42,022 bases of DNA from Basidiobolus ranarum (taxonomy: Eukaryota): the NCBI GenBank assembly GCA_040143965.1, contig JASJQH010000035.1, positions 1-42,022 of the forward strand. The letters are read 5' to 3'. How positions within the stretch are numbered: the stretch's first letter is position 1; every line of letters begins with the position of its first letter. The translations under genes were made by a program, and so were the position numbers. Below the pieces are notes generated by a model. It had not been told where the DNA came from. It ran no database searches and was given only the letters and a program-made list of their open reading frames with translations. Shown piece by piece: positions 28,376-40,557 of the stretch.

Positions 28376-30605
28376 TTACTCCTTTCTATTCAGTCCGTCG
28401 AAGTATGCATCTATTGAATCAATGTTTAGTTGATTGTGCTCGCTTTTCACTTCCCCTGTCATGTAATTAATTTACTACTAAAACATTACTTACGTTGTAG
28501 GGCATTCTCTGCACTGATCCTCTTTTCCGGTTGAAGTTCGAGTAACTTCTATTAACAGGATGTGAGAATATTAGTACAAATTTGATTATATGATTCTCCA
28601 ATTTTCCAGATATATATGTATATGCATAAATGAAATGAGATGAGACTACTAACATTAATAAGGTCAATCCCGAGTGGATCAAGTTTCGGTATAAGTGTCT
28701 CTAGTGCTACTTTCTGATACACCGGAAAGTCCTTCTGTAAATCATAATATAAGGTTTGGTCATGTTCCTAAAAGGTCCAAGTAATCAACTTACCTTATAA
28801 TCAGGTAGCTGGGATACTCCAGGCCACATCTCTTCGGTAGGTGTACCTTGCACTGTAATGTTCGAGTTAAGGATTGACAATATCAATAAAAGGCTTACAC
28901 AGTGAGGTGAGATTCAATTGAAGGAGTTCCTTGTCTCGCTTGTTTTTCGTTCCTTCAACTTGACATCATATTACACTATGTTGCAATCTTTTTTAAAAAA
29001 GGATATTTGAATATACGCATTAATTGGTCATTAATAGATGTTCCTGGGAACAAAGGTCTTCCTGAAGCCATTTCTAATAACAAACAAATACAAGTCTAGG
29101 TGTCAACAGGGAGTCAACGATGATAGCCATAGAAGCACACGTACCTGCGAAAATACATCCAACGGACCAAACATCGATAGAGGTGGAGTATTGTCTTGAG
29201 CCCATGAGGACATCTGGAGCGCGATACCATAATGTCACCACTTCATTTGAATAACTCCTCACTGGAATACCAAAAGCCCTGGCTAGACCGAAATCCGCTA
29301 GTTTTAACTCATTCTTTTTGTTGATCAGCAAATTTTGAGGCTTCAAATCCTGAGAACATCAAATGAGATTTAGTAAATATCGATGCTCATATACCATCAT
29401 TAGAGAGTGTCATTTGAAGACTGAATATTCTTTTGATTTACCCTATGAAGAACTCGGTGCTCATGACAAAAGGCGATTCCCAGAAGCAGTTGATACATTA
29501 GTTGCTAATCATATCAATATCCAGATATAAAGGAAGATTAAGATTAGCATGAAGTCATCGTTATATTCATTATGTTCTTCTTCGCCACTCCCAAACTCTC
29601 CATATGTATTCATTTTATACTTCGCAATCTCGCTTACCTTGATTGTGAAAACGTCAATATCTCCACCGTACGTATCCAAGAACTTTTTCAGATCTGAGTC
29701 TAAATATTCAAAGACCAATGTGAGCTTTTTCTCCGTATGCAACACATCGTAGAGTCTTAATGGGTAGGATAATAAAGAGGAGCAGGTTAGATAAATACTC
29801 CAAATAACGACCCTCTTTCTTGGAGTAATCTCAACAGGTCGATAGTAAGGGAAAGCTAGTATAATACCTAACAATATTTGGATGCTTAAGCTCTTTCAAC
29901 AATGATATCTCTCTGATAGCTGTGCAAGGCACCTTTAAAGTTGACGCAACAACGTCATAAAGACAAAATTTATGTTAGTCTCTTGTGTGTATCTACCTCA
30001 AATTTCACATATCGAAATATACACTAGAGTGCCATATCTTCACACATATAAGCAAAGAAATAATCGGCTCTAACATACCCCCTCCTCTTCATTATCCAAT
30101 CGTATCCGTTTCAGTGCAACCACATCACTCGTTTCTCGATTTTGCGCTTTATATACGATACCGTATGTGCCTAGTTATTCGTCCATAAAGAGTAAAATTT
30201 GTTAGCTACGTTGGTTTATTTTTACCACCTCCGCAAGTTCAAAGTGATTCGTAGAACGTACCTTCTCCTAACTTTTCTATTTTCTGTTTGGGTAATTATA
30301 GGTAACCATGGATATAATTAAGTTTGTTTTCGAAAGGTTGGTGTTAAATGAGTAGGGTACACGAGTAACGTTTGGTAAGCGAGCAGAAATAAAGGAAACG
30401 AGAAAATAAAGATTAGTTCTGATATAAAGGAAGAGATCGTAAAAGATAAAGTAATAATTGAAGATGGGGTTGGTAGTGGAGTGAAAGAAGAAAACTAAAG
30501 GTTGAATTGGAGAGAGTATGTGCGTGAGGGGGGTGAGAAATATAGTGAAATAGGGTAATATATATTTTTAAATAAAGAATGACACCGTACTTGGTACTTG
30601 TCCAT
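28376..30605 (-). CDS. CDK5: CDK5/Pho85-family cyclin-dependent kinase with PCTAIRE helix
   Basis: Twelve exons. [21 protein letters not shown]...[25 protein letters not shown]...[10 protein letters not shown]...[33 protein letters not shown]...RPLFPG...[17 protein letters not shown]...[11 protein letters not shown]. The frame only closes if intron 29006-28855 is AT-AC. Confidence 0.9.
28855..29006 (-). other. U12-type AT-AC intron (intron 8 of the CDK5-like gene)
   Basis: Donor ATATCCTTTT at 29006, branch TCCTTAAC at 28873-28866, terminal AC at 28856-28855. Splicing gives TTC AA|A GTG CAA GGT ACA CCT. Confidence 0.95.
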
Positions 30606-31088
30606 CTTCGCTTCTCTCTTTTTGCTATCACTTCCTTTTTACTCCTCTTGTATTTATCCAGAATACACGTTCCAACAAAAAGTAAATATTAAATCGTATC
30701 TATTGAACCAACATAAGGAAGGAAATTTTATCGAATATTTTAATCATCGTGAGTTTAAACATGGTCCCAAAAACCCCTCATTATTTATTGCAATTATGAG
30801 GTTATCGATTATTTCGGTTCCTTCGTTATACATTGACTATGATACCGATTGAGGTCAGGTGTTCAAATTCAGAATCTCTCAATCTTAACTCCACTGTTGA
30901 CAAATAAAAATGCAAATGTCTACCATTTTAGAACGATTCCAATATTTCGGGAAGGTTCATAACTGTATGTATTTATTATGACAACAGGAATAAGGGTAAA
31001 GTAGACTATGTGCTGACTAATGTCTATACTATGAATGATAAACATTATAAATAAATAAATAAATAGAAATCCATTCGATTAGTACTGT

Positions 31089-31655
31089 TTAGATCAAATT
31101 CCAAACGGTAATTGGTAAAAGTAGTACTATAACAGAGATGCAGGGTAAAGTCAGTGTCGCCGATGATTTTCCAGTTTGCTTAGAGTTGGTATCTGTTGTG
31201 TTTGCACCACTTTTAGCATTCAAAACGGGAGAGTATCCACTACCACTGTCAGAACCACTGACTGGTCCTTTGGATCCAGTATAGGGAGTACCAGCGGCAA
31301 CATTAGGGTTTAATATAATGAAATAAGGGCTGTACTTTAGATTCTTTCCAGATCCTATTCTAAGGACATATTGATTCCCTTCAGGGACTTGACTGGGAAT
31401 GGACCATTTGTATAAACCGGAGCTGCCACCAACGTTTACATCAATGGTGAGAACTACTGTAAGGTTGTTTGACGGACCAGAAAGTAACTGTAAATCTACA
31501 AGTGAGGGGGTCAGATCAGCCCCACTATCTTCCTTCCATTTGATATCCTCTTGACTCCCAGCCTTCCATACAGCACTGATAGGACTGGTAATGGAGAAAT
31601 CTCCTAAGACAACTGAAGCAAACAATGAAGCGAGTAAGCAAAGAATACGAATCAT
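31089..31655 (-). CDS. Secreted, probably GPI-anchored Ser/Thr-rich protein with Kre9/KNH-like N-terminal Ig-like domain
   Basis: Signal peptide MIRILCLLASLFASVVLG, then ITSP...W...L.LLSGPSNNL...G.YKWSIP...YVLRI...YSPYF.I pattern, S/T/G-rich stalk and hydrophobic C-terminus. Confidence 0.8.
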   Translation of the reverse strand: MIRILCLLASLFASVVLGDFSITSPISAVWKAGSQEDIKWKEDSGADLTPSLVDLQLLSGPSNNLTVVLTIDVNVGGSSGLYKWSIPSQVPEGNQYVLRIGSGKNLKYSPYFIILNPNVAAGTPYTGSKGPVSGSDSGSGYSPVLNAKSGANTTDTNSKQTGKSSATLTLPCISVIVLLLPITVWNLI

Positions 31656-39340: not shown

Positions 39341-39858
39341 TGTTGAAAGGTTAGAAGCACAAAGGCGATAACCAAGATATTGACGCTCTATGTATCAAGG
39401 AAATAGGGATACTCCCTTTTTCTTTTTTTTCGTGCCAACCTCAATGATTTCACAATTACCCCAATTACCATTGTGTATTTTGATTGGTAATAAATATGGT
39501 TATTATCCATCTTAAGATCAAACGCTACCAACAGATTGGTTTGAATTGGTTTTTGCTTTATTTTAATCACCATATCAATTTTATTCTTACCAAGTTTCGT
39601 TTCAGCAATGTTGAGAAGTGACCTCTGGTTTAGGATTTAGCAGTGATTTAAACCAAATTAGATAGAGTTGAAGACATTCTATTACGTAGTATATGCTTGG
39701 TTGCAGAAAGCAATAACATGTAGTCAGAGCAGAAATAAATTAGTGGATGCTATTTATTTACATGATAGCTTAGCTAATGGATGTTCCTACTTTTGAAAAG
39801 CTAGGTATTACTTGGAAGTAGGCGGAACTCTATTCAAGCAGGAGCATTCCGTAGTAGA

Positions 39859-40557
39859 TTAAAGATATCTTCTGGCAAGGGCACGCACTTTGGTGTCAAA
39901 GCTCGTAGAGGTAATCAAAGCATTTTGCTCATAAAACGGATTCAGTAAGGCCTGTCTATATGTTAGAAAACGAACAGTTATTATGAATGAGAGGTTGATG
40001 TTTACCCGAATATAAAGTTCGTGACAATCTTTGAAGAAATTGAAAATAGCATCGTCATTCTTGGCCTCGTGCAATAACAATAAACGAACATCTGTTTCTA
40101 ATGGTTAAGGGGTATTAACGCCAGGATTTGTATATACTTGTTTCAAGTTACTATGCGTCAGTTATCACTCAATAAAAAAGGATACTGCTTGGCGTCACGT
40201 AGGCAGAGACAAACCATTCATTGTATTTATCCACTGTCTTCAAGTATCTATAAAAGAGCAGTGTCTTAGAAAAGAGGGTATTCCAAAAGCGCGTATCTCA
40301 ACATAATAAACAGACTTACAGAGCATTTGTTGTCCATACCATCTCATCTACAACATCCAAAGCACTGTGAGCTACGAATTGGTATAAATGTTTTGTCTCC
40401 TCATTCTATTGAAAAGTTTGTCAGGGAGATGGAGATGTTAGGATGAGTAGGAATTTAGCTTAATTACCCTAATGGCATCTTTAGCTGGTGAACCAATCTC
40501 TGCCTCGTAGATTGGGTTATCTTTATTGCCAACAATTGCGAAATAAAATCCAGACAT
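39859..40557 (-). CDS. TRS20: TRAPP complex subunit Trs20 / sedlin (TRAPPC2)
   Basis: Five exons. MSGFYFAIVGNKDNPIYEAE...HLYQFVAHSALDVVDE..W...[29 protein letters not shown]...NPFY...FDTKVRALARRYL. Confidence 0.95.
40092..40185 (-). other. U12-type GT-AG intron (intron 3 of TRS20)
   Basis: Donor GTATCCTTTT at 40185, branch CCCTTAAC at 40111-40104, CAG acceptor 12 nt later. Phase 1. Confidence 0.92.

Follow-up and report, generated by a model that had tools for sequence, protein, structure and literature searches.

Three U12-type introns in the CDK5, PSF3 and TRS20 genes of the early-diverging fungus Basidiobolus ranarum

Three genes on the minus strand of Basidiobolus ranarum contig JASJQH010000035.1, encoding a CDK5/Pho85-like kinase, the GINS subunit PSF3 and the sedlin homologue TRS20 (TRAPPC2), each contain one intron with the features of the minor (U12-type) class. 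The analysed stretch has a length of 42,022 nucleotides (nt) and is called the window in the following. The source names the encoded proteins Basidiobolus ranarum, phylum Basidiobolomycota, in agreement with an initial annotation that had attributed the DNA to a fungus. Basidiobolus is an early-diverging fungus; two studies on minor introns (PMC10639083 and PMC11347168) place it in the Zoopagomycota. We describe the three introns and the genes that carry them, the evidence for their type and age, and the extent to which their close spacing informs about the minor-intron content of the genome.

Structure of the three introns and their genes

Donor and branch motifs were located in the window by pattern searches and by direct reading of the minus strand. 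Three donor/branch pairs were conspicuous (29006/28873, 37011/36953 and 40185/40110), all on the minus strand. The three introns lie within 11.3 kb, from position 28855, the 3' end of the CDK5 intron, to position 40185, the 5' end of the TRS20 intron (Table 1). The CDK5 intron begins with ATATCCTTTT and contains the branch motif TCCTTAAC, which is followed by 11 nt up to the terminal AC. In the PSF3 intron, the 5' end reads GTATCCTATT and the branch stretch TTCCTTAAC ends at position 36946, leaving 18 nt to the terminal AG. The TRS20 intron starts with GTATCCTTTT, and its branch stretch CCCTTAAC is followed by 12 nt to the terminal AG. The termini are unmixed, i.e. AT-AC in CDK5 and GT-AG in PSF3 and TRS20. 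The initial annotation had described three introns with an RTATCCT donor and a CCTTAAC branch site 11 to 18 nt from the 3' end, and had proposed that both the AT-AC and the GT-AG subtype are present. Both statements hold, with one AT-AC and two GT-AG introns that are U12-type by all sequence criteria that could be applied.

Table 1. Positions of the three genes, their U12-type introns and the branch-site motifs in the window
Feature	Position	Strand	Description
CDK5/Pho85-like kinase gene	28376..30605	-	12 exons, 11 introns, 292 amino acids; exact map of deposited protein P0009
U12-type AT-AC intron, CDK5 intron 8 of 11	28855..29006	-	phase 2, interrupts codon 216 (K), length 152 nt
CDK5 intron branch-site motif TCCTTAAC	28866..28873	-	pattern search
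PSF3 (GINS subunit 3) gene	36550..37503	-	7 exons, 6 introns, 187 amino acids; exact map of deposited protein P0121
U12-type GT-AG intron, PSF3 intron 4 of 6	36928..37011	-	phase 2, interrupts codon 104, length 84 nt
PSF3 intron branch-site motif TCCTTAAC	36946..36953	-	pattern search
TRS20/sedlin (TRAPPC2) gene	39859..40557	-	model built in this analysis: 5 exons, 4 introns, 138 amino acids
U12-type GT-AG intron, TRS20 intron 3 of 4	40092..40185	-	94 nt, phase 1
TRS20 intron branch-site motif CCTTAAC	40104..40110	-	pattern search

The assignment of the genes as CDK5-like, PSF3 and TRS20, as given in the initial annotation, is upheld by the names and domains of deposited proteins and, for TRS20, by the Pfam family Sedlin_N. 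A CDK5 exon retrieves P0009 from the deposited proteins with 100% identity; its database name is 'cyclin-dependent kinase 5 [Basidiobolus ranarum]'. P0009 has a precomputed kinase domain (Pkinase, PF00069) and matches named CDK5 proteins across early-diverging fungi and animals. The corresponding protein of Basidiobolus meristosporus (P0010) has the same length, is 100% identical over the retrieving exon and is identical around the junction. A PSF3 exon retrieves P0121, 'DNA replication protein [Basidiobolus ranarum]', which carries the name PSF3 at the source and a precomputed PF22466 domain; a full HMMER scan of representative sequences returned 824 PSF3 homologues at E <= 0.001. PSF3 exon 6 gave no Pfam or PDB match and exon 4 gave weak matches only, in which six of the seven matched PDB sequences are PSF3 chains that rank at the top with E values of 0.04 to 0.37. 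The PSF3 junction was consequently judged from 59 aligned homologues of the representative scan, which replaced the Pfam and PDB matches. Shortly after the stop codon of PSF3, at 36412-36472 (-), lies a match to a SNORD56-like C/D-box small nucleolar RNA, which is probably a chance match (24.5 bits versus a gathering threshold of 36, E 0.77).

The TRS20 model was built by reading, and its exons, each shorter than 40 amino acids, were joined by their coordinates into a clean open reading frame. Exons 1 to 5 match the Pfam family PF04628 (Sedlin_N) at positions 1-20, 23-48, 51-70, 72-101 and 103-129 of 129, with single-exon scores of 14.9 to 30.3 bits compared with a whole-protein cut-off of 23.1. 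At intron 3, exactly one profile position, between 70 and 72, remains for the split codon. The top PDB matches are sedlin/TRAPPC2 structures, and the two exons beside intron 3 align to residues 60-78 and 82-108 of 1h3q_A, which puts the split codon between sedlin residues 79 and 81.

Support for the splice junctions came from two sources. P0009 and P0121 were placed on the window by spliced exact-match mapping, and both map exactly onto the junctions called for CDK5 and PSF3. When introns are restricted to GT-AG or GC-AG termini, P0009 yields no exact map, i.e. an AT-AC intron is needed. The second source is provided by alignments of homologous proteins: 92 of 119 CDK5 homologues align without gaps over amino acids 203-231, 25 are gapped or partial and 2 fall short, while 39 of the 59 PSF3 homologues, including most of the closest ones, are gap-free over amino acids 98-110. 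Reading through the introns on the minus strand meets stop codons or breaks the frame. Together, the protein maps and homologue alignments indicate indirectly that the three segments are removed from the messenger RNA at the called sites.

Assignment to the U12 class

For comparison of the donors, all 21 introns of the CDK5, PSF3 and TRS20 genes were scored against the nine positions of the consensus RTATCCTTT. The CDK5 donor ATATCCTTT and the TRS20 donor GTATCCTTT match at all nine positions and the PSF3 donor GTATCCTAT at eight, whereas the other 18 introns reach only 3 to 6 matches. With TCCTTRAY as the branch-site consensus, the CCTTAAC core is complete in all three introns, ending 11 (CDK5), 18 (PSF3) and 12 (TRS20) nt before the 3' end, and the PSF3 branch stretch TTCCTTAAC agrees with its consensus at nine of nine positions. 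According to PMC3584512, the 5' splice site and branch site are the features that define U12-type introns, and the optimal distance between branch site and 3' splice site is 11 to 13 nt. The same canonical motifs are found in B. meristosporus, which belongs to the same genus.

Intron phase and base composition were compared as well. The three introns have phases 2, 2 and 1, in line with the reported tendency of minor introns to avoid phase 0 (PMC10639083); of the 18 U2-type introns in the same genes, 11 are in phase 0, and phases 1 and 2 account for 4 and 3, respectively. The pyrimidine fraction from -18 to -4 is 0.60, 0.73 and 0.47 in the three introns and ranges from 0.40 to 0.73 in the 18 U2-type introns. 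There is thus no contrast, and the polypyrimidine-tract criterion is unusable here because the U2-type introns in these genes also lack such a tract. By these sequence features, the three introns are genuine canonical U12-type introns in conserved housekeeping genes of B. ranarum.

In the mechanism that would apply according to established knowledge, U11 and, at a later stage, U6atac would bind the rigid 5' splice site RTATCCTT. The branch site TCCTTAAC would pair with U12, leaving the branch adenosine bulged, and the 3' splice site would be selected through its closeness to the branch site.

The U2-type introns of the three genes have peculiarities of their own. Two of the ten in the CDK5 gene (29933-30078 and 29756-29867, both -) end with AAG rather than YAG, and the three genes use loose donors (GTACGG, GTATTA, GTAAAT, GTTAGT and others). 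Due to these loose donors, ab initio intron calling failed.

Age of the TRS20 and CDK5 introns

The TRS20 intron can be compared with a known human U12-type intron. The numbering of 1h3q_A agrees with that of human TRAPPC2 at L61, K62, V64, W70, S73 and F83 (PMC7260818, Table 1), and the codon split by the Basidiobolus TRS20 intron therefore corresponds to residue 80, in phase 1. Intron 4 of human TRAPPC2 separates c.238 from c.239, and c.239A>G corresponds to p.H80R (PMC7260818, Table 1). The same table lists c.238+1A>G, which places an A at the first donor position and defines an AT donor. This human intron is listed among the disease sites that affect U12-type 5' splice sites (PMC3584512, PMC7507305). 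It thus resembles TRS20 intron 3 of Basidiobolus in family, codon 80, phase 1 and U12 type, but differs in subtype, as the human intron is AT-AC and the fungal one, only 94 nt long, is GT-AG. With family, codon, phase and type in agreement, TRS20 intron 3 and human TRAPPC2 intron 4 are identified as the same ancient intron, which would have switched its subtype.

The CDK5 site was traced in metagenome contigs, which were scanned with the degenerate pattern DQLxRI(F/Y)(K/R) followed by RTATCCTT. Twenty-one unrelated contigs match this pattern, and all of them also encode the upstream stretch GRPLFPG, which is not part of the pattern and identifies the contigs as CDK5 homologues. The donor is GT in 16 contigs, in which the exon is closest to animal CDK5 (P0008). 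It is AT in the remaining five, which are fungal-CDK5-like; for two of these the closest proteins are from Rhizophagus/Glomus, and for three the closest is a Blastocladiella protein. Seven of the 21 contigs also contain the downstream GTP exon, joined in frame, and the branch motif in these seven is CCTTAAC in four, CCTTGAC in one, a variant in one and without a clear motif in one. The two contigs with a Rhizophagus/Glomus-like exon carry ATATCCTT at the same CDK5 site as B. ranarum.

Among the glomeromycete-like contigs with this CDK5 gene, one (L008) contains the intron in full. Like its counterpart on contig L001, the gene has an intron of the form ATATCCTTGC...AC at the same site. The last 60 nt of the L008 intron contain no canonical TCCTTAAC; the sequence most similar to it, TCCATAAC, is found some 31 nt upstream.

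CDK5 donors of the U12 type in both animal-like and fungus-like environmental genes argue for retention over gain. For PSF3, a literature search for GINS3 together with 'minor intron' retrieved no paper. At least two of the three introns, those of TRS20 and CDK5, are thus, according to these positional comparisons, old and retained rather than local inventions.

Minor-intron content of Basidiobolus and alternative explanations

Minor introns of Basidiobolus have already been published, and the present observation is correct but not new. Larue & Roy (2023; PMC10639083) counted 249 minor introns in B. meristosporus, corresponding to 0.554% of its introns and the highest fraction in fungi. The same work gives 205 minor introns (0.272%) for Rhizophagus irregularis and reports none that are convincing in Ascomycota or Basidiomycota. 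Rhizophagus irregularis likewise belongs to the early-diverging fungi and has a canonical minor system, conserved intron positions shared with animals and plants and a phase bias away from 0 (PMC10639083), although it belongs to a different phylum than Basidiobolus. For B. meristosporus, Olthof et al. (2024; PMC11347168) arrived at 237 minor introns (0.5%). The same study reported U11, U12 and U6atac genes in zoopagomycete species, as well as a putative divergent U4atac in B. meristosporus that was detected at a lowered threshold. Our search of the literature for Basidiobolus and 'minor intron' retrieved only these two works and their preprints, and none on B. ranarum specifically. The proposal of the initial annotation that this fungus has a functional U12 system is accordingly supported by the literature on its congener B. 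meristosporus only, and not by the B. ranarum genome itself.

The initial annotation had further considered the system as possibly unusually rich, because three of about 70 introns in the window appeared to be of the minor type. The number of about 70 is a hand count of that annotation, and the present analysis gives no intron total of its own. A Viterbi gene finder was tried for this purpose and rejected: in a leave-one-gene-out test it recovered at best 5 of the 21 known introns with 19 false ones, and the count for the window varied from 43 to 337 with a single penalty, with low penalties chaining the whole strand into one gene. The same program fused an ISY1-like gene in the region 17634-20889 (+) with the histidyl-tRNA synthetase gene directly downstream of it. 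ISY1 is a general splicing factor and not specific for the minor spliceosome. As a measure of the genome-wide rate, three of about 70 is not supported as stated, since the sample is small and the window was flagged for exactly this feature.

The gene content of the window is important in this context. It contains about 23 recognisable genes, and with three minor introns among them it lies well above the published average of B. meristosporus, which is, however, a different species. In addition to the three genes described above, the recognisable genes include those for a DEAD-box helicase, uL14, uL22, an ABC transporter, UreF, a CCHC zinc-knuckle protein, a TALE homeobox protein, ISY1, the histidyl-tRNA synthetase HisRS, a dynamin-family GTPase, a YEATS protein, NDH2, a Kre9/KNH protein and a C2H2 zinc-finger protein. 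The number of introns is 11 in the CDK5 gene, 6 in the PSF3 gene and 4 in the TRS20 gene; in B. meristosporus, genes of fungal origin have a median of 2 introns and 36% have none (PMC7466969). According to PMC10639083, minor introns concentrate in old genes, and the study argues that their bias towards certain functions stems largely from gene age. The remark in the initial annotation that the introns lie in typical minor-intron gene classes therefore carries little weight.

A search of the window for other U12-type candidates under strict motif requirements yielded no additional short pair in coding surroundings. A relaxed motif scan returned dozens of pairs, nearly all of them long or implausible, and three were inspected or placed. 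The pair at 11551..11461 (-) lies in DNA without open frames, and the pair at 22402 (+) lies inside an open frame of 375 amino acids. The ATATCCT at 38918 (-) belongs to the coding sequence AYPGYP of the C2H2 zinc-finger gene, where the real intron is GTAATT...TAG. All three were rejected.

Two other regions of the window were noted. Between the CCHC zinc-knuckle and TALE homeobox genes, at about 10500-12800, there are approximately 2 kb without an open frame longer than 88 amino acids on either strand. At 41640-42020 (-), an open frame runs off the right end of the window and has no Pfam match at E <= 0.01. Its gene-finder translation contains a YADADWA-like stretch, of the kind present in copia-type retroelement polyproteins.

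Taken together, we consider it very likely that the three introns are genuine U12-type introns, that at least two of them are ancient, and that their clustering mostly reflects sampling in a genus rich in minor introns. Several observations weigh against this explanation in one part or another. At position +8, the PSF3 donor has an A where the consensus has a T, and the PSF3 branch motif, at 18 nt from the 3' end, lies beyond the optimum of 11 to 13 nt. Indels occur near the PSF3 junction in 20 of the 59 aligned homologues. The TRS20 gene model is our own and not a deposited protein. P0009 and P0121 annotate the same contig, and their exact mapping therefore depends on the splice-site choice of the annotator, so that independent support for these junctions comes only from the homologue alignments. 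The metagenome pattern demanded RTATCCTT, and the matches thus demonstrate a minor-intron site in distant lineages and not how frequent it is. No small nuclear RNA gene was found in the window (Rfam, no match of any kind at gathering thresholds and only the SNORD56-like match at E <= 1). Finally, three minor introns are an excess for one random window. If 249 introns represent 0.554%, B. meristosporus has approximately 45,000 annotated introns, and at this rate about 70 introns are expected to include 0.39 minor introns, with a Poisson probability of about 0.007 for three or more.

Chance matches to the motifs, with the true splice sites elsewhere and the annotation in error, would be in line with the observation that neither motif alone shows enrichment in the window over shuffled sequence (RTATCCTT 5 versus 4.67 expected, CCTTAAC 8 versus 5.19 expected). 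The combination of the motifs behaves differently. When RTATCCT was required to be followed by CCTTAAC within 400 nt and by the matching terminus 8 to 20 nt further on, the window contained three pairs, all on the minus strand, compared with a mean of 0.177 in 1000 first-order Markov simulations, of which two reached three pairs. In addition, all three pairs are located exactly where the frame and the homologues demand a junction, and the stops and frame breaks met on read-through likewise speak against chance, which makes this explanation extremely improbable. A related possibility is that the introns look like U12-type introns but are removed by the major (U2-type) or a hybrid machinery, e.g. 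because U4atac is missing or replaced. This idea draws on PMC11347168, which reports no high-confidence U4atac in the zoopagomycete lineage and discusses non-canonical solutions. It is difficult to reconcile with the full donor and branch consensus in all three introns and their short spacing between branch site and 3' splice site. An AT-AC intron with ATATCCTT misfits recognition by U1 and U2 according to established knowledge, and for the congener, genes for U11, U12 and U6atac have been reported (PMC11347168). That the motifs are conserved at orthologous sites in organisms ranging from fungi to human moreover implies selection by the cognate machinery. We regard splicing by the major or a hybrid machinery as very improbable, though not quite to the same degree as chance matches.

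The remaining alternative accepts the three introns as U12-type but takes their cluster as representative, so that the minor-intron density of B. ranarum would be 1% or more and several-fold above the approximately 0.5% of its congener. Such a difference could arise if surveys miss AT-AC and odd introns, or if the species gained or kept more of them. The argument for this view is that three U12-type introns occur among about 23 recognisable genes, and among about 70 introns for which 0.39 are expected. Its weight is reduced because the window, a single sample of 42 kb, was selected for this feature, because the denominator of about 70 is a hand count and because the window is packed with old, intron-rich housekeeping genes, in which minor introns concentrate. 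In addition, two independent surveys of B. meristosporus agree at 237 to 249 minor introns (PMC10639083, PMC11347168), the deposited annotation of B. ranarum already handles an AT-AC intron, so that gross under-annotation is not evident, and none of the further candidates in the window (11551..11461, 38918 and 22402) held up. A representative cluster therefore appears unlikely, and so does a genome-wide rate several-fold above 0.5%, which would correspond to 1% or more and to hundreds to a thousand introns. The most likely explanation for three U12-type introns within 11.3 kb is sampling, aided by a window that is dense in ancient, intron-rich genes, and the cluster is probably no sign of a minor-intron share of several percent in the genome as a whole.

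As a discovery, the finding carries little weight, because publications of 2023 and 2024 already describe the minor introns of early-diverging fungi and their exceptional number in Basidiobolus. Its modest value lies in a concrete and well-anchored set of minor-intron examples for a second Basidiobolus species. The sedlin gene in particular offers a minor intron at the same codon and in the same phase in Basidiobolus and human, with a switch between AT-AC and GT-AG. If, against our expectation, the genome-wide rate were several-fold above 0.5%, B. ranarum would represent the richest known minor-intron genome outside Physarum, and in this culturable fungus the retention, gain and regulation of minor introns would become directly testable.

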